From NCBI GenBank assembly GCA_052388375.1, contig JBQTIG010000038.1, forward strand, positions 927 through 64,926: a stretch of 64,000 bases of DNA, written 5' to 3'. The notes beneath the pieces were generated by a model that was given only the letters and a program-made list of their open reading frames with translations, made no database searches and was not told the DNA's origin. Source of the stretch: Planctomycetaceae bacterium (GTDB taxonomy: Bacteria; Planctomycetota; PLA2). Shown one piece after another: positions 7,814-63,973 of the stretch (position 1 is its first letter; the number at the start of each line of letters is the position of its first letter). The position numbers and the translations under genes were made by a program.

Positions 7814-7981
7814 TCAGCTGGCGCGCCGCTGCGTCTCCGCCTGCCCCGGCTCGGGGCGCACGTCCAGGCGCCTCCCGCAATCGACGCAGTAGAGATAGGA
7901 GTGGGTCTCGAGGCGCACGTAGAGGTGCCGGGTCGTCTTCCGGCAGCGTTCGCCCGCGCAGTAGTAGTTGGTGCCCGTCAT
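7814..7981 (-). CDS. Small zinc-ribbon protein (CxxC-N18-CxxC), 55 aa
   Basis: MTGTNYYCAGERCRK...YCVDCGRRL has very high GC3, unlike the 171-aa extension upstream in the same frame, which is low-complexity. Confidence 0.45.
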   Translation of the reverse strand: MTGTNYYCAGERCRKTTRHLYVRLETHSYLYCVDCGRRLDVRPEPGQAETQRRAS

Positions 7982-8108
7982 GGTGTTGCTCGCTGTACGA
8001 TTCCTGGGTGCTGTATCGACTGGACGAAGGCGGAGAGTAAAGCGCATCGGCTTGGACTTCCCGATGCCGCCCCGGCGCCGGCGGCGTCGTGGCGGCGTTC
8101 GCGCATCC

Positions 8109-9409: not shown

Positions 9410-9481
9410 GGATGCCGCTTCCCTCAAGGGTAGCCTACCGAAGTCACGCGACCAAGACTCCAGAGCGCAAGGGCGCGCGCG

Positions 9482-39126: not shown

Positions 39127-39272
39127 GGGCGAGCGCCGAGGGATTGTACCCTTGAGAGGCGCGCCGGAAACTACCCCCTTGCGCGGCGACCCGGCTCGCC
39201 GCTAGGATTCCTGTTCGACAGGAGGGCACCCGGCTCGATTCCAGCGGGAACGTCGGGCAATAGGGAGGCGCC

Positions 39273-39336: not shown

Positions 39337-39990
39337 TCAGCGCCAGATGACGTAGTCGCCGGTGGCCTTGGCCCGCAGCTCCCTGAGCTGCAGCGCCGTG
39401 AGGGAACTCGCCTTGAGGACGCGCATCGGCGCCCGACCCGTAGCGCTGGCGCCCGCCGGGCGATCGCCCGCCGCGGCAAACCCCTCGGGAGATACCGCTA
39501 CACAAGCGGCGTCGGCCGCGCGGGGATCCTTCTCGTCCACCACCTCGAGGACCTTCAGCCCCGGCTTCCAGGAGGCAGCTGATGCCGCCGTGGTGCCGGA
39601 GCCGGGCCCGTAGACCAGGAGCCCCTCGAGTTGCAGCATCAGCACCAGCTCGCGCGCCCGGGCGAGCTCCATGCTCGCCGGAAGCCAACCCCACACCTTG
39701 AAGCGGCGCTTCTGCACCCGCTCCAGCTGCTCTTTCCAGAACGCCGCTTCGCCGCCGGGAGCGCCCTGGAGTTCGAGCGCGAGGAAGCTGTAGCCATCCC
39801 CGGCGAGGAGGTCCGCCAGCCGGTCGGAAAACCTGCTGAAGCTCTCCACGTAGCCGCGCCGCTCTTTGACTCGGATCTCGATGGGCGCCGGCGGTATCGC
39901 GAAGGCGATCGCTCCGAGGAAGAGGACCGCAAGGCCCGCGATCACCCGCGACGCCCCCTTCGGCAGGGGATCCCGTACGGCGAAGGTCAT
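39337..39990 (-). CDS. Membrane-anchored protein of unknown function
   Basis: An N-terminal TM helix (VIAGLAVLFLGAIAFAI) is followed by a soluble domain. The upstream 110 codons of the ORF are low-complexity. Confidence 0.45.
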   Translation of the reverse strand: MTFAVRDPLPKGASRVIAGLAVLFLGAIAFAIPPAPIEIRVKERRGYVESFSRFSDRLADLLAGDGYSFLALELQGAPGGEAAFWKEQLERVQKRRFKVWGWLPASMELARARELVLMLQLEGLLVYGPGSGTTAASAASWKPGLKVLEVVDEKDPRAADAACVAVSPEGFAAAGDRPAGASATGRAPMRVLKASSLTALQLRELRAKATGDYVIWR

Positions 39991-40152
39991 AGCGCGCGAT
40001 TCTAGCAGCCCCCCCCAAGCTCCCGGCGGCGCGGGCCGGCCAACCCTCGCCGATGGCGAGGACGGCGCCGAGGCGCCGAGGCGAGAGTCGCGGCTCGCGG
40101 CCCGCTCGCGCCACGCTGCGGCAAGGCCCGTCGAGGATAGAATGAGTCCGTC

Positions 40153-40362
40153 GTGACCGAGCGCTCCCGCAGAATCGTCGTGAACGTCGCACGCAGCCAC
40201 GAGGAGGCGGAAGCTTGGGACCTCCGATTCTGGCACGATCTCGGTCCGACGGCGCGGCTCGAGGCGATGTGGGACATGGTTGTCGAGAGCGGCATGTGGA
40301 AAGGCGGCGATGGCAGTCAACCCCGACTTCAGAGATCTCTTTGCCGCCTTGAACGCCGCTGA
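40153..40362 (+). CDS. Small protein (69 aa) upstream of and overlapping the nucleotidyltransferase-fold gene
   Basis: It has a GTG start and high GC3. It overlaps the next gene by 53 nt in a different frame. Confidence 0.35.
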   Translation: MTERSRRIVVNVARSHEEAEAWDLRFWHDLGPTARLEAMWDMVVESGMWKGGDGSQPRLQRSLCRLERR

Positions 40363-40762
40363 GGCGCGCTACCTCGTCGTCGGGGCGCACGCCGTGGGCT
40401 TCCACGCGCGGCCGCGATTCACGAAGGATCTCGATCTCTGGGTGGAGCCCGCGCCCGCGAACGTGGGTCGCGTCCTCACGGCCCTCGCGACGTTCGGCGC
40501 GCCCCTTCGCTCGCTCACCGCGGCGGACCTGTCCGACCCGCGGACGGTGTTCCAGATCGGCGTGGCGCCGAACCGCATCGACATCCTGACGGCGCTGGAA
40601 GGGCTCACCTTCGCCGGTGCGTGGGAGCGGCGCGTCGAAGGGCGGTACGGCGACTGCACGATCCACGTTCTCGCGCGGGACGACCTCATCCGGAACAAGC
40701 GCGCGGTGGGTCGCCCCCAAGACCTCGAGGACGTGCGGGCTCTCGGGGGCGGCGCCGGGTAG
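40310..40762 (+). CDS. Minimal nucleotidyltransferase-fold protein (pol-beta superfamily; AbiEii/MNT-like)
   Basis: The segment GAHAVGFHARPRFTKDLDLWVEP matches the GS-x9-13-DhD nucleotidyltransferase motif. The C-terminus carries DDLIRNKRAVGRPQDLEDVRAL. Confidence 0.5.
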   Translation: MAVNPDFRDLFAALNAAEARYLVVGAHAVGFHARPRFTKDLDLWVEPAPANVGRVLTALATFGAPLRSLTAADLSDPRTVFQIGVAPNRIDILTALEGLTFAGAWERRVEGRYGDCTIHVLARDDLIRNKRAVGRPQDLEDVRALGGGAG

Positions 40763-42144: not shown

Positions 42145-42797
42145 GGCGCAAACGCGGCGCAGAGCCGCCGGAACAGGGGATCGCTGCGCTCGGGCGCATC
42201 CGCTTCGCTGCCCACGATGCGCGGGGTCGCGAGCAGGATGCCCGGGGCGGGGCCAGCGGGGAGAAACGACCGGACGCGGCTCCAGGCGGGGCGGAGCGCG
42301 GCACGCGCCTCGATCGGATCGCACTCTTCGTAGCCCTCCGGCGTCGGCTCGCCGCGGCGCAGCCAGCGCACCGTGGCCCCGCTCCAAACCGCGCTCCCCG
42401 GCCCCCTCTCCGCATCCTCCCGGACGGTTCCCTCCAGGCGCGCGGCGCGCCAGCCGCGGGGAGGCGGGCGCACGCGCAGGTGCGCTTCCAGGATGCGACC
42501 CAGTCGGCCGCGCGCGCCCGCGAAGGCGCGGGCGAGGTCGTAGCCGGCGACGTTCTTCACCACGGTGCCGCCGAAGCGGACCACGCTCCCGTCCTGCAGC
42601 CGCGCTCGGATGCCGAGCACTTGCGCCCGCGTCGGCCCGAGCAGCCCCCAGAGCAGATCGCCGCCGCCGCGGTCGATCCACTGCGCAACCGTCAGGTCGG
42701 GACGGTCGGACGCGAAGAGCCACGGGCGCACCCGCTCCTCCACCTCGGCGCAGGGCGCGTCGCCCGAAACGGTGACCACGCCGTCAGGAAACGACAC
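42141..42797 (-). CDS. glcE: Glycolate oxidase FAD-binding subunit (N-terminally short)
   Basis: GGTVVKNVAGYDL is the GlcE hallmark. The start is uncertain: GTG 42797 would overlap the glcD stop by 14 nt, while GTG 42779 or 42776 follows it. Confidence 0.6.
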   Translation of the reverse strand: MSFPDGVVTVSGDAPCAEVEERVRPWLFASDRPDLTVAQWIDRGGGDLLWGLLGPTRAQVLGIRARLQDGSVVRFGGTVVKNVAGYDLARAFAGARGRLGRILEAHLRVRPPPRGWRAARLEGTVREDAERGPGSAVWSGATVRWLRRGEPTPEGYEECDPIEARAALRPAWSRVRSFLPAGPAPGILLATPRIVGSEADAPERSDPLFRRLCAAFAP

Positions 42798-44169
42798 GGA
42801 ACGCCTCCTCGCGCCGGAGCGCCTCCGCGCACGCCTTGGGGCCGGGAAGCACTTTGCCGGGATTGAGGATGCGGCGCGGGTCGAAGGCGGCGCGCACGCG
42901 CTCCATCGCCTTGAGGGAGGCCGTGTCGAAGAGGAGCGGCATGAGATCGCGCTTTTCGACGCCGATGCCGTGCTCGCCGGTGAGCGAGCCGCCGGCGCGC
43001 AGGCAGATCTCGGCGATCTCTTTCCCGGCCGCTTCGACGTTTTCGGCCTCGTCGCGCCGGTGGGCGAGGAGCGGGTGCAGGTTGCCGTCGCCGGCATGGA
43101 AGACATGGACGAGCGTGAGGCCGCGACGCTCCGCCGCCGCGTCGATGGCGCCGACCGCCTCGCCCATGCGGGAGCGCGGCACCACGCAGTCCATCACGGT
43201 GCACTCCTCCGCGAGCCGACCCATGGCGCCGAACGCCCCCTTGCGCCCTTTCCAGAAGCGCCTCCGTTCCGCTTCGTCTTTCGCGCGGCGCAGAGGCCAG
43301 CGCGCGGCGATCCACTGGAACGCCTCCTCCACCTCTTCGGGGAACCCCTCCAGCTCCGCGAGAAGCACCGCCCCGGCGTCGCGCGGATAGCCGGCGGCGA
43401 AGACCGAATCCTCCACCGCCGCCACCGCGCGCCGGTCGAGGACCTCGAGCGCGGCCGGCAGGAGCCCTTCGCCGAGGATCTCCTGCACCGCGTCGCAGGC
43501 CTCCTGCATCCGCGCGAAGGGCAGGAGCAGCGTGGCGGTCGCCGCCGGGAGCGGGAGGAGGCGGAGCGTCGCCTCGGTGACGATGCCCAGGGTGCCTTCG
43601 CTCCCGATGAGGAGGGAGAGGACGCACTCGTCGTCGGTCTCGTGGACCGTTCCCTCCGCATCGATCAGCGTGATCGCGGCGACGTGGTCGGTCATGGTGC
43701 CGTGGCGCAAGCAGTGCGGCCCCCCCGACCCGCAGGCGACGTTGCCGCCGATCGTGCAGGCGGGTTGGCTCGAGGGGTCGGGCGCGAAAAAGAGGCCGTG
43801 GGGGGCGGCGGCTTCGCTCACGCGCAAATTGACGACACCCGCCTGGACCCGCGCGGTGCGCGAGGGAGGATCGAGGGCGAGGATGCGGTCCATCTTGGCC
43901 AGATCGAGGAGGACGCCGCCCGCGCAGGGGCGCGCCCCCCCGGCCAGGCCGGTCCCCGCACCGCGCGCCACGATGGGGATGCCCGCGCGCGCCAGCACGC
44001 GCACGCAGGCCGCCACTTCGCCGGTGTCGAGAGGGTAGGCCACCGCGTCGGGCAGTTCCCGATAGAGCCGCAGGCCGTCGCACTCGTGCACGAGAAGCGT
44101 CGCGCGGTCGTCGCGCACCCGGTCCGCGGGCAGGACGCGACGCAACAGCTTGGCGGCCGCGACGCTCAC
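42784..44169 (-). CDS. glcD: Glycolate oxidase subunit GlcD (FAD-linked oxidase)
   Basis: It has the FAD-binding PCMH domain (GAGTGLAGGA) and a C-terminal oxidase domain (GHAGDGNLHP, GEHGIG). Its GTG start overlaps the upstream stop as GTGA. Confidence 0.85.
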   Translation of the reverse strand: MSVAAAKLLRRVLPADRVRDDRATLLVHECDGLRLYRELPDAVAYPLDTGEVAACVRVLARAGIPIVARGAGTGLAGGARPCAGGVLLDLAKMDRILALDPPSRTARVQAGVVNLRVSEAAAPHGLFFAPDPSSQPACTIGGNVACGSGGPHCLRHGTMTDHVAAITLIDAEGTVHETDDECVLSLLIGSEGTLGIVTEATLRLLPLPAATATLLLPFARMQEACDAVQEILGEGLLPAALEVLDRRAVAAVEDSVFAAGYPRDAGAVLLAELEGFPEEVEEAFQWIAARWPLRRAKDEAERRRFWKGRKGAFGAMGRLAEECTVMDCVVPRSRMGEAVGAIDAAAERRGLTLVHVFHAGDGNLHPLLAHRRDEAENVEAAGKEIAEICLRAGGSLTGEHGIGVEKRDLMPLLFDTASLKAMERVRAAFDPRRILNPGKVLPGPKACAEALRREEAFRVVS

Positions 44170-46616
44170 CGCGACGCCTCGGACGCGGTCCAGGCGGGCC
44201 ACAAGACGCCCGCCATGCGGCGCGGGATCTCGGCGCCCTTTTCGCCCGCCGCCCGCAGCAGGCGCGCGTGGGCGAGATCGAGGAAGCGGGTGTCGGCCTC
44301 CATGCCCGACTGCGCGCAGGCGAGCAGCGTGAGCGCATCGAGCCAGGCGAGTCGCAGCGCGCCGGCGCGGCAGCGCTTCTCCAGGGCGTCGAGGAGCGCG
44401 CCGAGCTGCGGTTCGGGAATCCCCTTGCCGGGATCTTCCGGTCCCAGAATGCCCGCGATCAGCCCCGCGATGAGCTTCTCGGAGGCGCGCCCCTCCTCGA
44501 TCTCGCCGCGATAGTGCTCCGCGAACTCCACGGGCCGCACTTCGCGCCGCCCGAGATAGAGCCGCTGGTGGTCGCGGCGCAGGGCGCGCACCCGATCGGG
44601 ATCGCGGAACGCGAGTGCGAGCCAGGCTCCATACTGCCGCCAAATCGGCCGCTCCTCGCGCTCGCCGAAGGCCTCCATCGCGGCGGCGCATAGCCGCGCC
44701 GCATCCGGCCCCACCCGCAGATCGGCGCGAAGGCTTCCCGCCACCGGGCTGAGCCGCAACGCCAAGGCGGTGCCTGCGACGCGCGCGTAGCCATCCTTGC
44801 GTTGCAGAAGCGCCATCACCCCCGTGCCGTCCCCCTGGGCGAGAAGTGTCTGCGCCGCGAGGACGGCGACGGCGAGGGATCGTTCGGCGCACAGGCGGTA
44901 GGCGGCCGCGAGATTCGCTTCGTTCCCCTCGCGGGTCGCGGCCACGAGCACGCGCTCCAGCGCCTCCACGCGCAGCAGCTCCGCATGCTCCAGGAGAGTC
45001 TGCAGGGGAAGCGCGCGCCCGCGCTCGGCCCAGGGCAGGAGCTCCGCGAGCGTCTCGGGCGTGCGGGCGTGGAGCGCCGCGAGCCGTTCCGCCGGTTCCG
45101 AGCCCATGCGCGCGAGGAAGCGCACGAGGTCGCGCCGCTCCTCCTCCTCCTGCGTGCGCGCCAGCCGCGCGGCGACGAGATCCAGCACGTGGCCCAGGGT
45201 CGCCCCGCGCGCCGGCACCGGCTCGGAGCCGTCCTCGGGCAACGCCGCAACCAGCTCGATCTCCTCTTCGCGCGAACCGAAGAAGGTCACGGCAAGGCGC
45301 TCCAGCCGGAGCGGGCGGCGCAGGAGGCGGTTGTCGCGTCCCGCCGAACCGGGGGAGGGGCCCACGAAATCGGGGTAGTCCTGGGAGCGCGAGGGGAGGA
45401 GGACGCCGAGGAAGAGCTTTCCTCCCGCGCCGTCCTCCGTCGTGCAGGACCAGAAGAGCGGCAGATCGAGGCGCACCACCCGGGCGACCATCGGCGTCGC
45501 CTCCGGCGTCGCCCGCTGGAGGAGGACGTGGAGGAGCCGGAAGCGGCGGGCGTCCGCGGTCGTTTCCGGCGCGGGCATGGCGACGTCGCGCGACGCCGCG
45601 AACTCCGCGAGCGGGCGGGGCGGCTCGCCGTGGCCGGCGGCCAGCAGCAGTTCGCAGGTCTCCCGGAGCGGCGGGAGCGGCGCCAGGCGATCGAGCACGA
45701 GATCCATGAGGAGGCGCCTCTCGCGCGCGGGGAGCGCGGGCTCGCAGAGCAGCTCGAGGAGCAGCGGGGGCGCGCCGGCCACGAAGGCGGCGTCCTCGCG
45801 TCCCTGGGCGTCGACGCTGCGCGAGAGCGCCAAGAGCCCCTCGCCGTCGAGGGACCGCCGGCGGTAGGCGCGCAGGAGCGGGGCGCGGGCGTGCACGCCC
45901 CCCGCGAGGGGAGCCAATTGCGCCTGGGAGTCGTCGTCGAGCAGGGCCGGGAGGCAGAGGATGGAGGCCCCCTCGGCGAGAGAGTCATGGGCGGCCGGAT
46001 CCGCGCGGGTGCGGCGGTCGAGGGCGAGCAGCGAGGGAAGGAGCCTTTCACGGACGAGCCAGGCGGTGCGCGCATCGGGGCGCACCCGGCCCTCCAGCAC
46101 CTGGACGCAGCGCACCGCCTCGAGGAAGAAGCGCAACCGCACCGCGTCGGTCAGGGCCGGAGCGTCGAGCGCCGAGGCCGCGTGGGCCAGGAGGAGGTTG
46201 AGCGTTCCCGAGCCGACCGGTTGGGGCGCGCGGTAGGCGCCTTGGAGCGCGGCGAGCCCTTCCAGCGCCGCGCGGTGCTCGTCGCGCAGGCCGAGGCCCG
46301 ACTCCGGGCCGCGCAGCGGCGGCAGTTCGAGCGCAGGCTCCAGCACACCGACGAAGAGCTCGGCGAGCGGGAGCAGCCTGCCACCGGTTTCGACCAGGAC
46401 ACAGGGCGCGTCCACGAACCGGCGCGCCCGCTCGATTTCCTCGAGGGCCGCCTCCATCCTGCGCCGCTCTTCGGGTCCCGCGTCAGGCCAGCGCCGAAGC
46501 ATCTCCGCCTCCTCGGCGCGGCCGCCGCGGTAGGGACCGGCCACGAGGGGGGCCGCGAGGAAAACGAGGAAGAGCGCGAGGCGCCGCACGTTCCCCCACT
46601 CTACGCCTTCAGGCAT
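44166..46616 (-). CDS. Large (816 aa) secreted alpha-helical protein of unknown function
   Basis: It has a signal peptide (LALFLVFLAAPLVAG), uniformly high GC3 and is leucine/arginine-rich and helical. It is coupled upstream to the GT2 gene and downstream to glcD. Confidence 0.55.
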   Translation of the reverse strand: MPEGVEWGNVRRLALFLVFLAAPLVAGPYRGGRAEEAEMLRRWPDAGPEERRRMEAALEEIERARRFVDAPCVLVETGGRLLPLAELFVGVLEPALELPPLRGPESGLGLRDEHRAALEGLAALQGAYRAPQPVGSGTLNLLLAHAASALDAPALTDAVRLRFFLEAVRCVQVLEGRVRPDARTAWLVRERLLPSLLALDRRTRADPAAHDSLAEGASILCLPALLDDDSQAQLAPLAGGVHARAPLLRAYRRRSLDGEGLLALSRSVDAQGREDAAFVAGAPPLLLELLCEPALPARERRLLMDLVLDRLAPLPPLRETCELLLAAGHGEPPRPLAEFAASRDVAMPAPETTADARRFRLLHVLLQRATPEATPMVARVVRLDLPLFWSCTTEDGAGGKLFLGVLLPSRSQDYPDFVGPSPGSAGRDNRLLRRPLRLERLAVTFFGSREEEIELVAALPEDGSEPVPARGATLGHVLDLVAARLARTQEEEERRDLVRFLARMGSEPAERLAALHARTPETLAELLPWAERGRALPLQTLLEHAELLRVEALERVLVAATREGNEANLAAAYRLCAERSLAVAVLAAQTLLAQGDGTGVMALLQRKDGYARVAGTALALRLSPVAGSLRADLRVGPDAARLCAAAMEAFGEREERPIWRQYGAWLALAFRDPDRVRALRRDHQRLYLGRREVRPVEFAEHYRGEIEEGRASEKLIAGLIAGILGPEDPGKGIPEPQLGALLDALEKRCRAGALRLAWLDALTLLACAQSGMEADTRFLDLAHARLLRAAGEKGAEIPRRMAGVLWPAWTASEASR

Positions 46617-47205
46617 CCTTGCCCTCGCGGAAGCGAAAGCCCTCCTTGCGGCCTTTCTCCACCAAGCCGTGATAGAGCCTCCGGCGCTCCTCGAGAAGGG
46701 CGGGTGTGCGCAGCGCCTCCTTCTGGTGGTGGATCACGCAGGAGTCGCTGAAACGCCGCTGGAAGCCGCGGGCCAGCTCGTGGACGGGCCGTTCGAACCT
46801 CAGTTCGGGGACGTTGGGAAACAGCCGCCCCTGCCGGTCGGGGTAGAACCGGTCGTCGGGTGCGGGGCGGGTGCGCTCTAGGTCGAGCCAGTGGCGTCGC
46901 GGGAACTCCCAGATGCAGCTCCGCGCGAGGAGCGGCCGCGGATCGCCCTCAAGGACCTCGTCGGCGTCGAGCATCAGGACCCAGTCGGCGCTGGCGCCGC
47001 GGAGCGCCTCGTTGCGCATCTGGGCGAAGTCCTCGAACGCCACGTCGAACACGCGCGCCCCGCCGGCGACCTCCCGGGTGCGATCCCGGGTCCGGGAATC
47101 GACCGCCACCACGACTTCGTCCACGACCCCCTGCACCGAGGCAAGCGTGAGCGGGAGGCCGACTTCCTCATCGCGGGCGATCACCACAAGGGCCAGACTC
47201 GGCAC
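46609..47205 (-). CDS. Glycosyltransferase family 2 (short form)
   Basis: It has an N-terminal GT-A fold motif (LALVVIARDEE) and the DxD motif MLDADEV. Confidence 0.65.
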   Translation of the reverse strand: MPSLALVVIARDEEVGLPLTLASVQGVVDEVVVAVDSRTRDRTREVAGGARVFDVAFEDFAQMRNEALRGASADWVLMLDADEVLEGDPRPLLARSCIWEFPRRHWLDLERTRPAPDDRFYPDRQGRLFPNVPELRFERPVHELARGFQRRFSDSCVIHHQKEALRTPALLEERRRLYHGLVEKGRKEGFRFREGKDA

Positions 47206-55017: not shown

Positions 55018-55075
55018 GCGAGCATCCTACTCTTTGGGCCGGAGCAGGGGGACTCCCCGTCGTATACTTGGCGCC

Positions 55076-55813: not shown

Positions 55814-56701
55814 TCAGCGCCGCGGGTCGTTCTCGTGGCAGTCCTGGCAGACGACGACCTTGGTCAGCTGATCGCGCGCCTCGCGGTTCAGCTTTTCGAC
55901 CCACTTCTCCATCAGGTCCACCATGAAGACCTTGTCGTCGGCGAGGCGAGGCGGGCGGGGAAGGTCGCGGGCTCCGAGGACGTTCTTGTCCATCGCCGCG
56001 CCGAACTCGTCCTTGTGGCAGCTGGAGCAGCGTACGGTGCCGGGCTCCTTGAGGAGCGGCTGCCAGCGCGCGGCGGGGCCGCGATTCGTCGCGGGCTTCT
56101 CCTCCAGGGCGCGGAGGAAGGTGGTCATGAAGTAGGAGTAGTCCTGCGCGCGCTGCTGCCGCTCCGCCATGCCGCCGGAAGGGTCGTCGGCGTGACAGGT
56201 GGTGCAGGTCACGGCGGTCTCGAGCCGGTCCCCATGCTCGCGGTTGAGCCGCTCCACCCAGTTCATCATGAGCATGATCATGAACCGCTTGTTCTGGCGG
56301 TAGGACTGGACGGCCTCCGCGCCCGGATCCATCTGCTTCATCCCCTCGATGTTGAAGCGCGTCGGGTCGTGGCAGTCCTGGCACGAGATGGGGTTGGACG
56401 GATCGAGGAGCGGCGAGGACCAGGCGGCGTTGGGCTTGGCGTTCTTGGGGAGCGAGACTAGGGCGGCCACGAACTTCTTCATGAAGTGCGCCTTGGCCGC
56501 GGACTCCGCCGCCCGGTCCCCCTGGGCGGGCGGGGCGTCATGAGGGTCGACGTCGCGGGACCGCGGCCGGGGCGCGGGTTGGGGACCCGGCACCGACGCG
56601 CGCTCGGCTTCGGAGAGGCTCTTGAGGAAGTAGCCGAGGAGCAGGCCGAAGAAGAGCCCGACGACGAGCATCGGAGCGGAACGCTGGGTCTGGGCGGCCA
56701 T
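55814..56701 (-). CDS. Membrane-anchored tetraheme cytochrome c (photosynthetic-reaction-centre cytochrome c subunit-like repeats)
   Basis: It has four CxxCH motifs (CQDCH, CTTCH, CSSCH, CQDCH), each preceded by a Met-containing helix (FMIMLMMNWVERLNRE, VFMVDLMEKWVEKLNRE). It has an N-terminal TM anchor. TATAAT lies 9 nt upstream of the ATG. Confidence 0.7.
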   Translation of the reverse strand: MAAQTQRSAPMLVVGLFFGLLLGYFLKSLSEAERASVPGPQPAPRPRSRDVDPHDAPPAQGDRAAESAAKAHFMKKFVAALVSLPKNAKPNAAWSSPLLDPSNPISCQDCHDPTRFNIEGMKQMDPGAEAVQSYRQNKRFMIMLMMNWVERLNREHGDRLETAVTCTTCHADDPSGGMAERQQRAQDYSYFMTTFLRALEEKPATNRGPAARWQPLLKEPGTVRCSSCHKDEFGAAMDKNVLGARDLPRPPRLADDKVFMVDLMEKWVEKLNREARDQLTKVVVCQDCHENDPRR

Positions 56702-56738
56702 CGCGGACGGATTATAGGGCCGCTCGCAAGCCGCGCCG

Positions 56739-58232
56739 TCACCGCCAGTGCGGCTGGAGCGTCGTTTCCAGCGCGTCGGGGCGCCGCTGGACCGCCTCGA
56801 TGACGACCTCGCTGGCACGGGCGCCCTCGATCACGAGATAGCCGTCGAAGGAGACGATCCTCCGGCGCGCAAACACCGTAGAGAGCAGCACCCGGGCGCG
56901 CCGCCCGGACGCAAGCGTGCCGGGATACTGGTCCACTAGGCGGCCGTCCCCGTCGTAGAACTTGAAGACGAGGCGCGCCTCCCGCTGCCCGAGATTGAGC
57001 GTGAACAGTTCGGCATCGATGGCGCGGCGCACCTCCATCTCCAGCCGCGGGAAGACTGCTCTGCCGGCCTCCGCACCGGGCTCGGGCCGGAAGATGTCGG
57101 CCTCCGAGTCCGGCTCGGGGTCGGGGTCGGTCCGGTCGCGGGGCGCCGCGGCGTCCCCCGGAATGCGCAGGAAGTAGACCGAGCCGCCATCGGCGCGGGC
57201 GGCAAGGGACCAGCCTGCCCTCGTCGGGTTGACCACGAGTTCCCGGATGGCGCCGCCCGCCAGGATGGTCTCGTGCAAGAGCCGCCCCCGGTTGGCGTCG
57301 ATCACCCCGATCCAGGCCTTGCCGTCCCGCATGCCGGCGACGGCCACGGAGTCCTCCCCAAGCGCCGAGATGCAGGTAAGCTCGCCCTTTCCGAACACCG
57401 CGGCCCAGACCGGATCGCGCTTGCCCGTGGCATCGTCCTTGAAGATGTCCTTGAACTTGTGGACCGAGGGACGCGCATCGGGATCGAGGAGGAAGACCGC
57501 CGCATCGTCGCCCCTCCGCCCCGCCACCCAGATCCTGCCCGGCGTGGCGACAACGGCCGAAGGCACGAATCCGTCCGCCTTGTACGGATAGTCCTGGGTC
57601 AGGTCCCATCCGCCTCCCTCCCTCCCGCCGAAGCGGAGAAGCGAGGGACCTTCGGCCGCGACGAAGAAGTCGGGCTTGCCGTCCCTGTCGACATCGCAGG
57701 AGCAGCGCGTCGCCGCGAGGAACTTGCGGCCGGGGCGAGCGAGGAAATCGACGCGACCTACCCCAGCCTCGTTCCAGACGGCGAGATAGAGGTTGGCCCC
57801 CTCGGCGAGGCAGAGGAGCGCCTCGGAGTCGTCGCCGCCGAAGCCGAGGAGCCGGTACTCCCCGCCGCTCCCCACCGCGAGACCGCGGCTGTCCGCGGTC
57901 CAGCCGCGCCCCTGGGGCCAGGTACGGTGCAGAAGCGTCGTCGCCCCCCGGCGTTCGAACGCCAGGAGCCGCTCGCCCTGGCTGCAGAGGCCCCCGGCCG
58001 CTCCGGCGATCGTCGAGACGGCGACGGACCGCGCGGCCGTGTCGACGATCCAGAACTCCGTGCGCGCTCCGCGGGAAACCAGGGCGGCGAGCGTGTGGCT
58101 CTCCCCGCGGCGCAGCGCCGTGAGGCCGACGATGGTGCCGTCGAGGTCCTTCTTCGAGACCACCACCAGCGGGTCGGCGGCGGCCGGCGTGGAGAGCAGT
58201 GCGAGGAGGGCGGGCAGGGCGAGGAATCGCAT
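56739..58232 (-). CDS. Secreted protein of unknown function (FG-GAP/beta-propeller-like)
   Basis: It has a signal peptide (MRFLALPALLALLSTPAAA) and DxDGxxD-like segments (CDVDRDGKPDFF). The upstream 650 codons of the 1154-aa ORF are antisense to the radical SAM gene and low-complexity. Confidence 0.5.
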   Translation of the reverse strand: MRFLALPALLALLSTPAAADPLVVVSKKDLDGTIVGLTALRRGESHTLAALVSRGARTEFWIVDTAARSVAVSTIAGAAGGLCSQGERLLAFERRGATTLLHRTWPQGRGWTADSRGLAVGSGGEYRLLGFGGDDSEALLCLAEGANLYLAVWNEAGVGRVDFLARPGRKFLAATRCSCDVDRDGKPDFFVAAEGPSLLRFGGREGGGWDLTQDYPYKADGFVPSAVVATPGRIWVAGRRGDDAAVFLLDPDARPSVHKFKDIFKDDATGKRDPVWAAVFGKGELTCISALGEDSVAVAGMRDGKAWIGVIDANRGRLLHETILAGGAIRELVVNPTRAGWSLAARADGGSVYFLRIPGDAAAPRDRTDPDPEPDSEADIFRPEPGAEAGRAVFPRLEMEVRRAIDAELFTLNLGQREARLVFKFYDGDGRLVDQYPGTLASGRRARVLLSTVFARRRIVSFDGYLVIEGARASEVVIEAVQRRPDALETTLQPHWR

Positions 58233-58298
58233 CCTCCAAGGGTACCCTTTTCCAGCCGACAGAAGGAGGGGAGTAGAATCTCTCACTCCGGCCTCCCC

Positions 58299-59882
58299 AT
58301 GCGCGTCCTGTTCGTCTATCCCAACATCGACTGCCCCCCGGGCATCAACCACGGGCTGGCGGCGATGTCGGGCGTTCTCAAGTCCCGCGGACACGCCGTG
58401 GATCTCGTCCACGTCTGCGACAACCTCTGGGAACTCCCCACCACCGGGCAGGTGCTCGATCGCATCGACGCCTTCCGCCCCGACATCGTCGGCTTCTCGG
58501 TCATGTCGCAGCAATTCCCCTGGTCGTGCGGCATCAGCCGGGCCCTGCGGGCGCGGCATCCTGCGCTTCCGCAGGCGGTGGGCGGCGTTCACTGCACGAT
58601 GGTGCCGGAGGAGGTCGTCGCCTGCGCGCTGTTCGACTACGTCTTCCTGGGGGAGTGCGACCTCGCCTTCGCCGAACTGGTGGACCGGATGCGCGACGGC
58701 GGGGATCTCGCCTCGGTGCCCAATTCCCGCATCCCGGCCCGGTTCTCCCCGACCGGCGTGGAGATCCGCAACGCCGTGGGGCCGTTCCCCGACCTCGCGG
58801 CCCTGCCCGAGACCGACTACGACCTGTTCGACATCGAGCACATCGTGGAGCGGAAGAACGGGTGGATGGGCCTCATCACCTCGCGCGGCTGCCCCTACAA
58901 GTGCACCTACTGCTTCAACAAGGAGATCGTCGACCTCTACAAGGAGGAGGGCGGGGCGACCACGGTGAAGGAGTACCTGCGCGCCTACCCCGTGGAGCGG
59001 ATGATCGAGGAGATCGCCGCCTTGAAGCGGCGGCATCCGGGCATCAAGACCCTCATCATCGATGACGACCTCTTCACCCTGAACAAGCCCTACGTCCATC
59101 GCTGGACCCAGGCCTACCGGGAGAGCGGCATCGGCCTCCCCTTCGTCGTGAACGCCCATGTGCAGTGCTTCGACGACACCATGGCGAAGGCGCTCGCGGA
59201 CGCCGGGTGCCGCATCGTGAAGTACGGCCTGGAATCGGGGTCGGACCGGGTTCGCAAGGAGGTCTTGTGGCGGTTCATGACGAACCGGCAAATCGCCGAG
59301 ACCACCGCGGCGGCGCACCGGCACGGGCTCCACACGAGCGCCTTCATCATGTTCGGCCTCCCCCACGAGTCTCGGGAGGAGATCTTCGAGACCCTGCGGC
59401 TCTGCGCCGAAGTCAAGATGGGGCGCTTCCGCTGGGCGATCTTCTTCCCGTTCCCGGGCACGGCGGGCTATACCATCGCGAAGGAGGCGGCCCTCATCGA
59501 CTGGAGCCGCTGGGAGAACATGGGCAACTACTTCGACGCGAGCTGCCTCAAGTTCGGCGAGGCGCACGACCTCTTCCTCGAGAAGCTCGGCGCGCTCTGC
59601 CCCTGGTACGTGAACGCGCTCACCGACTGGCCCAGCGCGAAGACCTACACCGAGCTGGTGCGCGAGGTGGAGGCGATGGACCGCGAGACCTTCCGCCGGC
59701 GCCGCACCGAACTCATCGCCTACGATCGGGAACTGTCGGAGCAGCTCCTGCGCCTCGATCTCCCCCACTACTCGCTCCGTTACGCCCACGTGATGGGGGT
59801 GCGATCCGACTTCGTGCGCTGGGAGCGGCGCCTGGAGCAGTCCAGCCGCGAAGAGCAGGCGGTGGTCTACACCCTGGATTGA
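58299..59882 (+). CDS. B12-binding-domain radical SAM protein (class B)
   Basis: An N-terminal cobalamin-binding Rossmann domain (MRVLFVYPNID, DIVGFSV) precedes the radical SAM CxxxCxxC box (SRGCPYKCTYCFN). Confidence 0.85.
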   Translation: MRVLFVYPNIDCPPGINHGLAAMSGVLKSRGHAVDLVHVCDNLWELPTTGQVLDRIDAFRPDIVGFSVMSQQFPWSCGISRALRARHPALPQAVGGVHCTMVPEEVVACALFDYVFLGECDLAFAELVDRMRDGGDLASVPNSRIPARFSPTGVEIRNAVGPFPDLAALPETDYDLFDIEHIVERKNGWMGLITSRGCPYKCTYCFNKEIVDLYKEEGGATTVKEYLRAYPVERMIEEIAALKRRHPGIKTLIIDDDLFTLNKPYVHRWTQAYRESGIGLPFVVNAHVQCFDDTMAKALADAGCRIVKYGLESGSDRVRKEVLWRFMTNRQIAETTAAAHRHGLHTSAFIMFGLPHESREEIFETLRLCAEVKMGRFRWAIFFPFPGTAGYTIAKEAALIDWSRWENMGNYFDASCLKFGEAHDLFLEKLGALCPWYVNALTDWPSAKTYTELVREVEAMDRETFRRRRTELIAYDRELSEQLLRLDLPHYSLRYAHVMGVRSDFVRWERRLEQSSREEQAVVYTLD

Positions 59883-60847
59883 CGTCCCAGCAGCCGGAGG
59901 GCCGCGACGCGCAGGCCGCTGATCTCGATGCGGAAGATGTCGAGATCGTGGTGGATCCCGATCGAGAACCGGCGCAGTTCGAGGGGATCGCTTCCGGGCG
60001 GGTTGCTCCCGCGACGGCAGCTCACGGCACTCTCGACACCCGCTTCCCGGAGCGCCGCCTTGTCCGCCTCGTCGAAGTCCCCCGGCTGTCCGTTCGGGTA
60101 GCTGAAGAGCCGCTCGCGCGCCCCGGTCCACTCCCGCGCCAGCTGGACCGAGCGCCGGATCTCCTCGTTCCGGCGCTCCCGGGACTCGTTCCGGAGAATG
60201 CAATGGCGGTGGGTGTGCGCCCCAAAGGAGAGGAGGGAGGAGTCGAAGCGCCCCAATTCGTCGCGGCGCAGCGGGCGGAGAGTCTCGCGCTGGATTTTGG
60301 TCGGCTCCGCCCCCGCCTCCCGCCAGTCGCGGTCGATCAGGGCCTCGACCTCGTCGAGAGGACGCGTCAGGTAGTCCTTCATCGCGCAGGCGCCGGGCCT
60401 CTCCGGAAGGCCGCTCCGGCGCCAGAAGTCGCGCAGGAGGCGGATGCGGTCGTAGGGGAAGAGCGCGCCGGTCTCCACGTAGTGGGTGGCCAGGTAGATG
60501 GTGGCGGGGATCGCGTGCTCCGCGAGAATGGGAAGCGCCTCATGCAGGTTGTTGGCGTAGCCGTCGTCGAAGGTGACCGCGACCGCACCGGGCGGAAGCG
60601 TTCCCTGCCGGAGACGGTGCACCGCCTCCCCGAGGGGAAGAGGCCGGAGGCGCCGGCGGAGATAGCCCATCTGCTCGCGGAAGCGCGATGCGGAGACGAA
60701 ATAGGCGGGCACCCACGGTTCCCGGGCCAAGGCATCCGGGCAGACGCCGTGGTACTCGAGAACGCGCAGTCGCCTGCGGCCGGCCGCCAGGACCGCCGCG
60801 GGGATCCCCGAAATCACCGCGGCGCGCATGAGAGCCCGCTTCATCAT
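59867..60847 (-). CDS. Polysaccharide deacetylase (CE4 / NodB homology)
   Basis: It has the TFDDGY motif and His motifs (HTHRH). Confidence 0.75.
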   Translation of the reverse strand: MMKRALMRAAVISGIPAAVLAAGRRRLRVLEYHGVCPDALAREPWVPAYFVSASRFREQMGYLRRRLRPLPLGEAVHRLRQGTLPPGAVAVTFDDGYANNLHEALPILAEHAIPATIYLATHYVETGALFPYDRIRLLRDFWRRSGLPERPGACAMKDYLTRPLDEVEALIDRDWREAGAEPTKIQRETLRPLRRDELGRFDSSLLSFGAHTHRHCILRNESRERRNEEIRRSVQLAREWTGARERLFSYPNGQPGDFDEADKAALREAGVESAVSCRRGSNPPGSDPLELRRFSIGIHHDLDIFRIEISGLRVAALRLLGRQSRV

Positions 60848-60918
60848 TTCGCTGCGCCTAGTATCGGCCCGTTCCCCGGGATGCGCGAGCCCGCGCCGCG
60901 CCGCGCCGGGGGCGAACG

Positions 60919-61506
60919 ATGACTCCGCATCGCGCCGCCTTCTTCGATCTCGACGACACGCTCATCGACACCAGGCGCCTGCTCCTGCCGGACGCGCTGC
61001 GCCGCACCGCGGCGGCGCTCGGCGTCGAGGCGTCGCGGCTCGATCCGGGGGGCAAGAGGATCGGCGAGGTGGTAGCCCCGCTGGGCCCCCTCCCCCCCGA
61101 CCTCCTGGCCGCGGCGGCCGCCGCGTGGCACGCCCCCGAGGTGCCCGCATTGGAGCCGCTCCCCGGGGCGCGCGCGATGCTCGCCCGTCTCCGCGGCCGC
61201 CTCCCGCTCTTCCTCGTGACGCGCGGAAACCTCATGCGGCAGGCGCGAAAGCTGGAGCGCTGCGGACTCGGCCCCAGCTTCGACCGCATCGTGATCCGCC
61301 CCATCGAGGCGCCGGGAAGCAAGGCCGACGACTTCCGGCGTCTCCTGCTCGAGCATGGCTTGGCGCCCGGGGATTGCGTCGTGGTGGGCGACGATCCGCG
61401 CGACGAATTAGCCCATGGCGCGGCCCTCGGCTGCGCGATCCTGCAGGTGCCGGCGACGCCGTTCGACAGGATCGCCGACCGGCTCCTGGGCGAGCAGGCG
61501 GGCTGA
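60919..61506 (+). CDS. HAD-superfamily hydrolase
   Basis: Motif I reads FFDLDDTL and motif IV VVGDDPRDE. Confidence 0.75.
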   Translation: MTPHRAAFFDLDDTLIDTRRLLLPDALRRTAAALGVEASRLDPGGKRIGEVVAPLGPLPPDLLAAAAAAWHAPEVPALEPLPGARAMLARLRGRLPLFLVTRGNLMRQARKLERCGLGPSFDRIVIRPIEAPGSKADDFRRLLLEHGLAPGDCVVVGDDPRDELAHGAALGCAILQVPATPFDRIADRLLGEQAG

Positions 61507-61515: not shown

Positions 61516-62571
61516 TCAGGCGCGGGCGGACGACGGCGCCCGGAGATGCGCCCGGATATCGGGGCAGTACTTCACCTTCCAGATGCGTGCGTCCACGACG
61601 AAGTGCACCCCCGTCATCGTGTAGGCCAAAGGGACGAGCAGATCGACCCGCTGCAACCCGACCACGATCGCACCGTAGATGATGCCCGTTGCGAAGTAGA
61701 GCCAGCGCCAGCGCTTCTGCACGAGCCGGCTCGTGACGGGGTTCTCGGGGGAGAATCCTTCGGCGTACTTGTTGCGGTTGTAGAGCCAGGTGATCGCAAT
61801 GTACTGGGTGGCGTGGAACGAGGTGATCGCGACGAGGATCACGATCAACTCCGTGGCCAGGGCTGCCGCGGCCAGGACGAGACCGGAGGCCATGACGATG
61901 ACCAGGCACTTCTGCCACGCGATCTCCCCGAATCGCCAGTGGCGGTAGATCTCGCGGAACGCCATGGCAAGAAAGCCCACGGCCACCACGCCCATGACCG
62001 CCATCGCCCAGGGGACCGGCACGTGAGGCGTCAGGAGCCTGCGATCCACCTCGCCGAGATCCTGGAGCCGGAAGATGTAGAGGACGGGGGAGAAGATCCC
62101 GCCGAAGAGGCAGAAGTTGTCGATCCAGGTGTCCCACGCTCCCAGGCTTGAGGCGGGACGCCTCCGGTCGTAGAGCTTCACGAATCCGTAGTGCTGCTTG
62201 GCTTGGTGCCAGGCGGACGCGTAGAGGATGAGCGACAGGGCGTAGCCCATGCCCAGCAGCGCGGCCCCGGTGAAGGTGAGGAAGACGACGACCGCGGTGA
62301 GGACGTAGAAGCGGCGCGCGCGCCCGAATTCGGTCCGGTCGAGGTAGGTCCGGGTGAAGGTGTGGAAGACATGGACCTGGTCGAGGCAGATGGAGATCAG
62401 GGCGCAGAGGAGGAGCGTGGCGTAGGCGGGGATGAGCGCGCGCACGCCCAGCACGAGGAAGCCCAGCAGCCCGCTCCCAATGAAAAACGTCAGGTCGAAC
62501 CGAGGACCGACGATCCAGGGGGAGGGGGCTTGGCGCGCGGCGGCGGGGGCGGCGCAGGTGGCGGTGGTCAT
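61516..62571 (-). CDS. Polytopic membrane protein of unknown function
   Basis: It has about 9 TM helices from Met 62571. The upstream 117 codons of the ORF are low-complexity. Confidence 0.5.
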   Translation of the reverse strand: MTTATCAAPAAARQAPSPWIVGPRFDLTFFIGSGLLGFLVLGVRALIPAYATLLLCALISICLDQVHVFHTFTRTYLDRTEFGRARRFYVLTAVVVFLTFTGAALLGMGYALSLILYASAWHQAKQHYGFVKLYDRRRPASSLGAWDTWIDNFCLFGGIFSPVLYIFRLQDLGEVDRRLLTPHVPVPWAMAVMGVVAVGFLAMAFREIYRHWRFGEIAWQKCLVIVMASGLVLAAAALATELIVILVAITSFHATQYIAITWLYNRNKYAEGFSPENPVTSRLVQKRWRWLYFATGIIYGAIVVGLQRVDLLVPLAYTMTGVHFVVDARIWKVKYCPDIRAHLRAPSSARA

Positions 62572-62641
62572 TCCAGCGTGGCGTAAGGATAAGGGCGGCC
62601 GGGGACCTTGGCAACGAGGGCTTGCGCCCCGCCCCCCTTCC

Positions 62642-63973
62642 ATGATTCCCTTTCCGCCCATGGCGTCTCTCCGGATCGTCGTCTTTCTCCTCGCCGCCGC
62701 CGCGGCCGCCGCGTCGGAGGAGGACCTGGCGACCGAGAACGCCCGGCTGCGGGGAGAGCTCGCGACGTTGAAGGGGGCGGATCCGGATGCCGCCACACGG
62801 CGGGTGATCGAGCAGTACCTCGAGGATTCCCGGCCGGCGGGGGGCGCGCAAGCGGCGACCTGCGGCTTCGACCACGGCTTCTTCCTCGCCGCCGCCGACG
62901 GGCTCCACCTCCTGCGTTTCAACCTCGTCGCGCAGTTCGGCTGGTTCGCCAGCCGCGACTACAGCGACACGCACAGCCAGGCGCAGTCGGTGTTCGAGCT
63001 GGAGTCGCTCCGGCTGCGCCTCTCGGGGCACGCCTTCACCGAGCGTCTCACCTTCTTCGTGGACCTCGAATTGGCCCCGGCGGCGCGCCGCTTCCAAACG
63101 ACCGCCGACACGATCTCGGAGGGGTACTTCGTCTACCACCGCCGCCCCTGGGAGCACCTCCGCTTCAAGGGGGGGCGCTTCCGCCCCCGGTTCACCTCCG
63201 GGGAGGAGGCGGCGGACCACGCGCTGATGTTCGCCGCCCGCAGCCTGGTGAACGAGTTCTTCACGGTCGGGCGGACCGAGGGCATCGCCATCGTGGTGGA
63301 GAACCTGCGCGGAGGCCGCTCCGCCGTGGAGCTTGCCATCACGAACGGCTCCGAGCGCTTCAACCCCGACGCCCCCGTGATCGCGGACGACTCCCGCGCG
63401 GTCGTGAGCTTTCGCTGGGCGCGCACCCTGATCGGCGAGGGGGTGCCCTGGACCCACGCGGCGTTCGAGGGCGATCCGGGACAGAGCGCGGAGCCGGTCC
63501 TCGTGCTGGGGATAGGAGTGCACTTCGAGGACACGGTGATCGGGTCCATGGCGCAGGTTCAGTACAGGCAGATGACCGTCGACCTGATGTGGCGCCGGGA
63601 GGGGATGTGGGCCACCCTCAATCTATTCGGGCGCTTCCATAAGGAGGGGCTCGCAGGTGGGGGCGGGGAGGACTTCGGCGCCCATGCCGCCTTCGCGCGG
63701 TACCTGGTTCCCGGGCGCATCGCCCTCGCCTTTCGCGCCGGCTGGATCGAGTATGCCGCCGTCTCGGGCGGAGGCAGCGATCTCCTCGAGGCCACCTTCA
63801 GCTTCATCTTTTCTTGGCGCGACGAGGCTGGGAGCGTGCCCGGAGACCGGCTGAAGGTGAACCTCGACCTGGGATACGTCCAGAACGTGGCCCTGGGCTC
63901 GATGACCGCCGAGTTGCCCGCTGGATTCGTACAGGGGCTGGTCTTTCGCGCCCTGCTGACGGTCATCTTCTGA
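62642..63973 (+). CDS. Outer-membrane porin (phosphate-selective OprO/OprP-like)
   Basis: A signal peptide and coiled-coil N-terminus are followed by amphipathic beta strands that end in a terminal Phe (LLTVIF). Confidence 0.5.
   Translation: MIPFPPMASLRIVVFLLAAAAAAASEEDLATENARLRGELATLKGADPDAATRRVIEQYLEDSRPAGGAQAATCGFDHGFFLAAADGLHLLRFNLVAQFGWFASRDYSDTHSQAQSVFELESLRLRLSGHAFTERLTFFVDLELAPAARRFQTTADTISEGYFVYHRRPWEHLRFKGGRFRPRFTSGEEAADHALMFAARSLVNEFFTVGRTEGIAIVVENLRGGRSAVELAITNGSERFNPDAPVIADDSRAVVSFRWARTLIGEGVPWTHAAFEGDPGQSAEPVLVLGIGVHFEDTVIGSMAQVQYRQMTVDLMWRREGMWATLNLFGRFHKEGLAGGGGEDFGAHAAFARYLVPGRIALAFRAGWIEYAAVSGGGSDLLEATFSFIFSWRDEAGSVPGDRLKVNLDLGYVQNVALGSMTAELPAGFVQGLVFRALLTVIF

Follow-up and report, generated by a model that had tools for sequence, protein, structure and literature searches.

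Introduction

Does a run of five neighboring genes in a planctomycete genome encode a single pathway, and what would a cytochrome resembling that of the photosynthetic reaction centre (PRC) be doing among them? The locus in question occupies positions 55,814 to 61,506 of a 64,000-nt stretch of DNA (the window) from Planctomycetaceae bacterium (assembly GCA_052388375.1, contig JBQTIG010000038.1, positions 927 to 64,926, forward strand). It contains genes for a secreted propeller-like protein, a tetraheme cytochrome c with a transmembrane (TM) anchor, a divergently transcribed B12-binding radical SAM enzyme, a CE4 polysaccharide deacetylase and a HAD hydrolase (Table 1). The initial annotation took the five genes for a cluster, saw in the radical SAM, deacetylase and HAD genes a hint of the tailoring of a glycan or lipid, and assigned the cytochrome to the PRC type represented by PufC. 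Its five open reading frames (ORFs), with their strands and spacings, were all recovered in a mechanical ORF listing, and codon-position G+C supports the same gene models in a window whose G+C content is ~70% throughout. On balance, and with modest confidence, we favor the view that the region reflects a gene order conserved within one lineage rather than a pathway, and that the cytochrome is an orphan serving as a membrane-tethered electron carrier in the periplasm.

Gene order

Proteins encoded in the window were run by tblastn against two sets of loci, 14 retrieved with the cytochrome and 80 with the radical SAM enzyme (given below as L numbers). Within a single lineage one order recurs, in which the radical SAM gene is followed by the divergent propeller-cytochrome pair, a CN_hydrolase gene and a gene for a secreted HEAT/VWA protein, with the CN_hydrolase gene lying on the strand opposite to both the cytochrome and the HEAT/VWA genes. 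Identities within this lineage are 77-94% for the radical SAM enzyme, 39-55% for the cytochrome and 25-40% for the propeller protein, the exception being L021, where the cytochrome is 88% identical. The radical SAM gene does not adjoin the cytochrome gene in L011 and L014, and none of 66 further radical SAM loci, whose enzymes are 52-65% identical to that of the window, contains a cytochrome, propeller, CE4 or HAD gene.

The remaining members of the supposed cluster have associations of their own. Outside the window, L021 and L046, the closest relatives, are the sole loci in which the radical SAM gene has the CE4 gene beside it; the latter is absent in L001, L003, L005, L008-L010, L022, L023, L025 and L026. 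The HAD gene is paired with a gene for a 372-aa membrane protein in L001, L021, L022 and L046, and in L001 it lies ~6 kb from the radical SAM gene. The most constant neighbor of the cytochrome family, including its diheme forms (see below), is the HEAT/VWA gene, which is adjacent in every locus with flanking sequence past the 3′ end of the cytochrome gene; where the CN_hydrolase gene is absent (L010, L011, L013, and L026), it stands directly downstream of the cytochrome gene on the same strand. The five-gene cluster therefore dissolves upon comparison: the adjacency of radical SAM and cytochrome genes belongs to one lineage, the CE4 gene to the closest relatives and the HAD gene to its 372-aa partner, and the radical SAM enzyme should be cytoplasmic whereas the cytochrome should be periplasmic. 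The five genes are at least three independent units, and their arrangement is ordinary synteny.

Promoter-like sequences

A scan for sigma-70 promoters with two hexamers returned zero promoters, and the -10-like boxes listed in Table 1 were found by aligning the upstream regions of orthologous genes. Since the whole window, read on both strands (128 kb), holds only two TATAAT and nine TAnAAT sequences, the placement of such boxes just before start codons is not attributable to chance. The TATAAT preceding the cytochrome gene is likely the -10 box of the gene's own promoter, giving a transcript with a very short leader or none, so that co-transcription with the propeller gene would not be required. 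Similarly, the radical SAM gene has its own -10-like box and no co-directional neighbor, and is thus probably transcribed alone. The initial annotation had raised the question of whether the 66-nt divergent region (58233-58298) holds promoters for both flanking genes. The boxes TACCCT and TAGAAT make two candidate promoters there. These placements suggest that mRNAs of this lineage of Planctomycetota commonly have no leader or a very short one, and -10 boxes lying 6-11 nt from start codons should be useful in annotating the lineage's metagenome-assembled genomes (MAGs).

The tetraheme cytochrome

The cytochrome begins with a hydrophobic segment (residues 11-29; window 56615-56671) that AlphaFold2 models as a TM helix spanning residues 10-34, and its heme domain carries four CxxCH motifs, neighboring ones being ~59 residues apart, in agreement with its earlier description as a TM-anchored tetraheme protein. 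An alignment of 25 homologues, most of them encoded in Planctomycetota MAGs and 41-88% identical, retains a glycine zipper (G15xxxG19xxxG23) within the helix in at least 90% of its sequences. Such conservation argues that the helix is kept uncleaved and packs against something in the membrane, perhaps a helix of a membrane partner or another copy of itself. A Pro/Arg-rich linker (residues ~35-60), disordered in the AlphaFold2 model, joins the helix to the heme domain. The model (pLDDT 84, pTM 0.53) has a long helix directly before each CxxCH.

The first half of the heme domain is 33% identical to the second (E=4e-18), which identifies the cytochrome as a tandem duplication of a diheme module, (A-B)x2. 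Unit A, containing hemes 1 and 3, has the pattern FMxxFxxAL..P.N..P...W...CxxCH, and unit B, containing hemes 2 and 4, has the pattern FMxxLMxxWVxxLN...L...VxCxxCH.DP. The initial annotation had placed a Met-rich helix before every heme, and an invariant Met is indeed present in all four helices; however, the motif it quoted (FMxxLMxxWVxxLN) precedes only hemes 2 and 4, whereas hemes 1 and 3 are preceded by FMxxFxxAL...P.N..P...W.

When the 25 homologues were aligned end to end, the four CxxCH motifs (C107, C166, C225, and C285) and residues M74, M121, M141, M145, M192, and M264 were invariant, M260 was nearly so, and no position outside the CxxCH motifs held an invariant His. In an alignment of 43 modules the invariant residues were M13, F16, L20, P24, C46, C49, H50, M84, W87, N92, C105, C108, and H109. 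With exactly two invariant Met residues per two-heme module and no invariant His outside CxxCH, all four hemes most likely have His/Met ligation and hence a high potential.

Taken together, these features lead us to propose the following role. The uncleaved N-terminal helix, with its glycine zipper, would hold the cytochrome in the cytoplasmic membrane, and the flexible linker would project the ~235-residue heme domain outward. As c-type hemes are attached in the periplasm, the N-terminus would be cytoplasmic and the heme domain periplasmic. The latter would comprise two diheme modules, each a succession of Met-helix, CxxCH, Met-helix and CxxCH, with putative high-potential His/Met hemes, and may function as a tethered carrier or wire, much as the reaction-centre cytochrome does but with no reaction centre. 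Electrons would pass between a membrane complex docked via the TM helix and periplasmic partners, and the secreted propeller/beta-sandwich and HEAT/VWA proteins are candidates for such partners or for scaffolds. The radical SAM enzyme, in turn, would be a separate cytoplasmic enzyme modifying a sugar or glycolipid, and the CE4 and HAD genes would be incidental neighbors.

Several observations weigh against this proposal. No redox partner (bc1, ACIII, or oxidase) is encoded near the cytochrome. The axial ligands were read only from conservation, the AlphaFold2 model is heme-free, and a Foldseek search of the PDB with the model gave zero meaningful matches and hence no fold-level tie to any electron carrier. 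As for the candidate partner, the propeller gene is missing in some loci (L005 and L034), and alignments of the propeller family reveal neither a conserved cofactor-ligand pattern nor an invariant cluster of His, Cys, Asp or Glu residues. Finally, that ~15 loci keep the radical SAM, propeller and cytochrome genes side by side might reflect a functional link beyond what a within-lineage comparison captures.

Relatives of the cytochrome

The cytochrome is 100% identical to hypothetical protein ACT4PV_05750 of an NCBI MAG labeled Planctomycetaceae bacterium. An exhaustive HMMER search of 1.84 billion proteins returned 52 representatives of its family (E<=1e-3), making it a small family, and one that is unannotated. 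Six of seven genome loci come from MAGs named Planctomycetota or Planctomycetaceae and the seventh from an unclassified uncultured bacterium; the family occurs almost only in uncultured Planctomycetota. Stand-alone diheme A-B proteins also exist (P0031-P0051; genes at L012 2803-3318, L014 4879-5355, and L101 8001-8540), suggesting that the tetraheme form arose by tandem duplication. Some of them are TM-anchored and occur in Planctomycetota; others, from elsewhere, are lipoproteins, including one from a Terriglobia MAG whose gene starts 6 nt after a DUF455 gene. The longer contigs reveal no partner common to the diheme relatives (DUF455 in the Terriglobia MAG, ferritin in L102, nothing notable in L103), most contigs being too short to tell. 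In L012, a gene for an 848-aa protein resembling the 824-aa HEAT/VWA protein of the window lies directly upstream of the diheme gene (257-2803, minus strand). The family has no Pfam or NCBIfam home and is new within the multiheme cytochrome c superfamily. A literature search on PF02276/CytoC_RC and on PufC-like cytochromes of non-photosynthetic organisms found nothing relevant.

Of all named families, NCBIfam NF033196 (c_type_nonphoto) matches the cytochrome best (E=5.7e-9), at 36 bits where the cutoff asks for 70; the match covers residues 105-172, from the CxxCH of heme 1 to that of heme 2, and positions 28-93 of the 98 in the model; the diheme relatives match it too. Going by its short name, NCBI curators appear to recognize PufC-like cytochromes in non-phototrophs. 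The surprise that the initial annotation expressed at a PRC-like cytochrome outside phototrophs is thus unwarranted in itself, as a family of this name is already curated.

It is quite possible, although we would not bet on it, that any resemblance to PufC is convergent or extends no further than the superfamily, and that the protein is another multiheme cytochrome of the CxxCH superfamily (NrfA, NapC/NirT or c7-like), perhaps a quinol dehydrogenase similar to NapC or CymA. Four Pfam profiles, Paired_CXXCH_1, Cytochrome_C7, CCP_MauG, and Cytochrom_C552, pass their whole-protein cutoffs on the cytochrome, and the NapC/NirT profile (PF03264, Cytochrom_NNT) reaches 15.1 bits (E=0.02), below its cutoff of 24.1. 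All five score higher than CytoC_RC (PF02276; 8.5 bits, E=1.6, gathering cutoff 22.4), so that the PRC-type assignment failed the very hidden Markov model (HMM) test that the initial annotation had proposed for it. Moreover, NrfA chains head the PDB matches of the module profile (E=0.0026-0.016), with PufC and Chloroflexus c-554 behind them (0.026-0.2), and a TM anchor with four hemes is the layout of NapC and CymA as well. Against this alternative, the passing Pfam matches span only short stretches centered on CxxCH; Cytochrom_C552 (PF02335), for example, scores 25.1 bits against a cutoff of 24.1 over profile positions 81-175 of 438. An NrfA-type nitrite reductase was rejected on account of this fragmentary match and the lack of a CxxCK. 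The tetrahemes of NapC/NirT type and NrfH have more closely spaced CxxCH motifs, and their distal heme ligand is usually His, replaced at individual hemes by Lys or Met. The ~59-residue spacing, two invariant Met per module and lack of invariant His outside CxxCH in the cytochrome of the window are unlike this pattern.

That the cytochrome is instead a true, divergent member of the PufC/CytoC_RC family, with the same fold and linear arrangement of four hemes but recruited to non-photosynthetic electron transfer, appears doubtful to us, even though a number of profile comparisons point that way. In a single-sequence search of the PDB, the sole two matches below E=10 were PufC chains, and with the family profile the five best were PufC chains (E=0.0054-0.66), a spurious ribosomal uS19 appearing from E~1. 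We also built a PufC profile from seven sequences, namely PufC of Blastochloris viridis, verified against 2jbl_C, and six further PufC genes from plasmids. Alignment of the cytochrome family with this profile by hhalign gave 77% probability (P=2e-5) over 62 columns, running from heme 1 to heme 2 in both proteins and pairing W94/P97 with W100/P103, invariant M145 with M130 of the PufC precursor, and N153 with invariant N138. PufC M130, M110 of the mature protein, is the axial ligand of heme 2 in 1PRC. The match to c_type_nonphoto, the two-fold internal duplication and the N-terminal tether (a TM helix here, a lipid anchor in lipoprotein diheme relatives) are in keeping with PufC as well, and the PufC hallmark of a Met helix followed by CxxCH occurs at four segments, each with an invariant Met in a predicted long helix, a putative ligand. 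In addition, tblastn with PufC queries placed the best match of the window in the cytochrome gene for five of seven queries and the second for the other two (E=0.02-1).

Other results speak against membership. Beyond the failure of CytoC_RC, the profile is in none of the precomputed Pfam lists of the 25 homologues, and the reciprocal PufC HMM scores at most 12 bits on every member of the cytochrome family. The similarity is restricted to ~30-60 columns, hhalign at module level retaining only unit B (55% probability, ~30 columns), and the module profile ranks NrfA above PufC. Foldseek gave no PufC match. The tblastn matches are no better than a clearly spurious one elsewhere in the window, a PufC-like match at ~3066-3347 (minus strand) that is antisense to a real gene and was discarded as noise, although it outranks the cytochrome gene for the two queries just mentioned. 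Nor is there any photosynthetic context: pufL and pufM adjoin the cytochrome gene in no locus; neither the ORF scan nor tblastn queries of PufC and of a short piece of the PufM C-terminus (~57-75 aa) found puf or bch genes in the window; and none are in the Pfam-annotated gene lists of L001-L005, the other ~25 loci having been screened only with the window's own proteins. A genuine PufC, or phototrophy, was therefore rejected, since the sequences thus searched held neither puf nor bch genes and the HMM did not match. Homology of the cytochrome to PufC beyond that shared by the multiheme superfamily is likewise unlikely, if not negligibly so.

The propeller protein

The 497-aa protein encoded upstream of the cytochrome has a signal peptide (MRFLALPALLALLSTPAAA, followed by DP) and a seven-bladed beta-propeller (~20-356), which a Pro-rich linker (361-389), modeled as disordered, joins to a beta-sandwich at the C-terminus (392-492). 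Its AlphaFold2 model (pLDDT 82, pTM 0.72; 27-28 strands in residues 23-356) was predicted from a shallow alignment, as only five homologues were retrieved from a set of 5.8 billion proteins, with the same result for single-sequence and profile searches. Foldseek returned 375 PDB matches at E<=1e-3 (best E=2e-9), at the top of which were generic seven-bladed WD40 scaffolds with TM(target) of 0.64-0.74. These results bear out the secreted propeller-like protein of the initial annotation, with membership at the level of fold only, as Pfam FG-GAP_3 reaches a sub-threshold 17 bits. Orthologues from related loci are 25-42% identical (85% in L021), and the invariant residues are mostly Gly, Trp, Pro and Arg. 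Despite this low overall identity, a C-terminal L.PHWR-COOH (56739-56753) is nearly invariant, and the PHWR may be a sorting or interaction motif.

Propellers are paired with c-hemes in cd1 nitrite reductase, PQQ dehydrogenases and hydrazine synthase. By analogy, the propeller protein could be the catalytic subunit of a periplasmic redox enzyme, with the tetraheme cytochrome as its dedicated electron acceptor or donor, an arrangement that we consider improbable. It would accord with the co-directional propeller and cytochrome genes, 5-37 nt apart in ~12 of 15 tetraheme loci, with the export of both proteins and with the extra beta-sandwich on a seven-bladed propeller. It is at odds with the residue pattern of the family described above, the lack of any Pfam enzyme match, the fast evolution of the protein (25-40% identity) and the TATAAT box that the cytochrome gene has to itself, as well as with loci in which the propeller gene is not beside the cytochrome gene (L005, L030, and L034) and with the diheme relatives, beside which it is not found either. 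The protein more likely serves as a scaffold or in binding than as a catalyst.

The radical SAM enzyme

The assignment of the 527-aa protein to the class B radical SAM enzymes was confirmed by two Pfam domains above cutoff, B12-binding (5e-14; 52.5 bits, cutoff 32.1) and Radical_SAM (1e-21; 78.3 bits, cutoff 29.5), and by the CxxxCxxC motif, GCPYKCTYC; cobalamin is a putative cofactor. Its best PDB match is AprD4 (6fd2; 1e-18), an enzyme that lacks cobalamin. All NCBIfam subfamilies score below cutoff, namely ApyD (124 vs. 750), HpnJ (102 vs. 578), AprD4 (80 vs. 500), BchE (66 vs. 481), and rSAM_ladder_B12 (69 vs. 360). The family is broad, with members in 289 metagenome stretches. Of the 48 distant loci with sufficient flanking sequence, 24, all of a lower-GC clade, have a gene of the GT9 heptosyltransferase family 25-40 nt downstream of the radical SAM gene and co-directional with it, and often a second GT9-like gene encoding 498 aa follows (L070-L099; radical SAM homologues 52-56% identical). 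Examples are L083, with the radical SAM gene at 6001-7563 and GT9 at 7603-8655, and L070, with the second GT9-like gene at 8693-10189. This pair looks like a conserved operon, and there is no GT9 gene in the window. Together with AprD4 as the nearest solved relative, the GT9 partners suggest that the enzyme probably modifies a sugar or glycolipid. The tailoring of a glycan or lipid envisaged in the initial annotation thus gains some independent support for this one enzyme, but not as the task of a five-gene cluster.

The radical SAM enzyme is probably unconnected in function to the cytochrome. We rejected the cytochrome as its reductant, as the two proteins should be in different compartments. 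Least probable by far, and already largely refuted by the comparative data, is that the radical SAM, CE4 and HAD proteins jointly tailor a glycan or lipid while, in the periplasm, the propeller protein and cytochrome work on that product or supply redox equivalents: the radical SAM gene does adjoin the propeller-cytochrome pair divergently in most loci of the lineage, the CE4 and HAD genes do follow it in the window, L021 and L046, and its homologues elsewhere do precede GT9 genes, but the wider loci described under Gene order lack these associations, the genes have separate conserved -10-like boxes, their products evolve at unequal rates (radical SAM ~80%, cytochrome ~45%, and propeller ~30% identity), and direct electron exchange is implausible, given that c-type cytochromes mature in the periplasm and the radical SAM enzyme lacks a signal peptide.

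Other genes of the window

The two outer members of the supposed cluster were correctly identified in the initial annotation, with Pfam scores above cutoff and diagnostic motifs in their translations: the CE4 deacetylase matches Polysacc_deac_1 (PF01522; 3.8e-19, 69.3 bits, cutoff 23.1) and has TFDDGY and HTHRH motifs, and the HAD protein matches Hydrolase (1.4e-14; 55.4 bits, cutoff 26.4) and TIGR01509 (33.3 bits, cutoff 29.4) and has FFDLDDTL at residues 8-15. The 372-aa protein and a 513-aa protein are both kept beside the HAD gene in L021, L022, L046, and L001. As annotated, the starts of their genes overlap, so one of them is probably wrong. Judged only by eye, the N-terminus of the 513-aa protein resembles a signal peptide, after which comes a charged and perhaps helical stretch (ENARLRGELATLK). 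Some 30 other ORFs of the window were scanned and have typical planctomycete content (ECF sigma factors, FGE-sulfatase, DUF1570, DUF6288, the second HEAT/VWA protein, and ferritin), with no puf, bch or respiratory-complex genes among them. An HNH endonuclease domain gene lies among housekeeping genes, and large ORFs near it (39340-40368, 42544-44511, and 44169-46733) have no Pfam match.

Table 1. Genes, heme sites and -10-like boxes discussed in the text, in window coordinates.
Feature	Position	Strand	Remarks
Tetraheme c-type cytochrome, 295 aa	55814-56701	-	Four CxxCH
Secreted propeller protein, 497 aa	56739-58232	-	Exactly 37 nt between its end and cytochrome ATG
B12-binding (class B) radical SAM enzyme, 527 aa	58299-59882	+	66-nt divergent gap to propeller gene
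CE4 polysaccharide deacetylase, 326 aa	59867-60847	-	Convergent with radical SAM gene, 16-nt overlap
HAD-IA hydrolase, 195 aa	60919-61506	+	DLDDT motif
CN_hydrolase (nitrilase superfamily), 243 aa	55076-55807	+	Pfam 1.6e-30; convergent with cytochrome gene, 6-nt gap to its stop
Secreted HEAT-repeat and VWA protein, 531 aa	53422-55017	-	Pfam
Second, larger HEAT_2/HEAT_PBS and VWA protein, 824 aa	20889-23360	+	
Multi-pass membrane protein, 372 aa	61516-62634	-	No Pfam or NCBIfam match
513-aa protein	about 62432-63973	+	No Pfam or NCBIfam match
HNH endonuclease domain protein	38524-39201	-	Pfam HNH 1.7e-15
Heme site 1, CQDCH (C107-H111)	56369-56383	-	After helix 60-79 bearing invariant M74
Heme site 2, CTTCH (C166-H170)	56192-56206	-	After helix 138-159 with invariant M141, M145, W148, N153
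Heme site 3, CSSCH (C225-H229)	56015-56029	-	After helix 178-200 bearing invariant M192
Heme site 4, CQDCH (C285-H289)	55835-55849	-	After helix 257-274 with M260, invariant M264, W267, N272
-10-like box, TATAAT (perfect)	56711-56716	-	9 nt before cytochrome ATG; 12 of 15 distinct loci have a TAnnnT-type box 7-11 nt ahead of the start
-10-like box, TACCCT	58239-58244	-	6 nt before propeller ATG; of ~10 distinct loci inspected by eye, most have GTAnnCT at 6-7 nt
-10-like box, TAGAAT	58274-58279	+	19 nt before radical SAM ATG; (G)TAGAAT in nearly all loci of the lineage
-10-like box, TATACT	55063-55068	+	7 nt before CN_hydrolase GTG; seen in the window only
-10-like box, TAGGAT	55024-55029	-	6 nt before HEAT/VWA start; seen in the window only

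Implications

The locus illustrates how tight adjacency within a lineage, here of radical SAM, propeller and cytochrome genes, can mimic a gene cluster; that the radical SAM family is distributed more widely and that the promoter-like boxes are separate both argue otherwise. The cytochrome family is modestly interesting, chiefly for its possible evolutionary link to the reaction-centre cytochrome. If that link is real, PufC would have non-photosynthetic relatives, including a minimal diheme form, with a bearing on how the tetraheme subunit bound to reaction centres evolved. If it is not, the protein is still a compact four-heme cytochrome, with apparently all His/Met ligation, in poorly known uncultured Planctomycetota with uncharacterized respiratory chains. 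A bolder scenario, for which we hold out little hope, is that the diheme module represents an undescribed family of all-His/Met cytochromes sharing ancestry with the heme units of the reaction-centre cytochrome, and that in one lineage of Planctomycetota it was duplicated in tandem, in parallel to PufC, into a membrane-tethered wire of four hemes that works with the propeller and HEAT/VWA proteins as a new electron-transfer module of the periplasm. Were this scenario true, the precursor of reaction-centre-type tetraheme subunits would have living models in the stand-alone diheme proteins.

Comparison with known systems

The radical SAM enzyme shares with the class B enzymes AprD4, ApyD, HpnJ, and BchE an N-terminal B12-binding domain and a radical SAM core, yet it belongs to a conserved family of its own, with members of 520-527 aa, that falls far under the cutoffs of all named subfamilies. 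Among cytochromes, the likeness to NrfA lies in unit A (FxxALSxxP...P...W...CxDCH), which the module profile aligns to NrfA residues ~211-274 (E=0.003-0.016). Hemes 2-5 of NrfA are bis-His; the cytochrome of the window has four CxxCH motifs and neither the CxxCK active-site heme nor a fifth heme. With NapC, NirT and CymA it has in common an N-terminal TM helix and four c-hemes facing the periplasm, but its heme-motif spacing and pattern of conserved Met are not theirs. It differs from NF033196 in being a TM-anchored tandem duplication about three times the length of the model, and its score below cutoff excludes it by the NCBI criterion. From PufC, in which three of four hemes are Met-ligated and one is bis-His, it differs in that all four of its hemes appear to be His/Met. 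It is also shorter (a 235-residue heme domain), has a longer Met-to-Cys spacing at hemes 1 and 3 (33 residues), has no significant HMM match in either direction, is encoded outside any pufLM or bch context, and comes from a planctomycete host. Nonetheless, the cytochrome resembles PufC in design: both have four c-hemes, a Met-bearing helix before CxxCH, an internal duplication (hemes 1-2 vs. 3-4) and an N-terminal membrane tether, with hemes that are probably of high potential, and over the weakly similar stretch from heme 1 to heme 2 the heme-2 Met, the Asn and a VTCxTCH..P motif stand in register.

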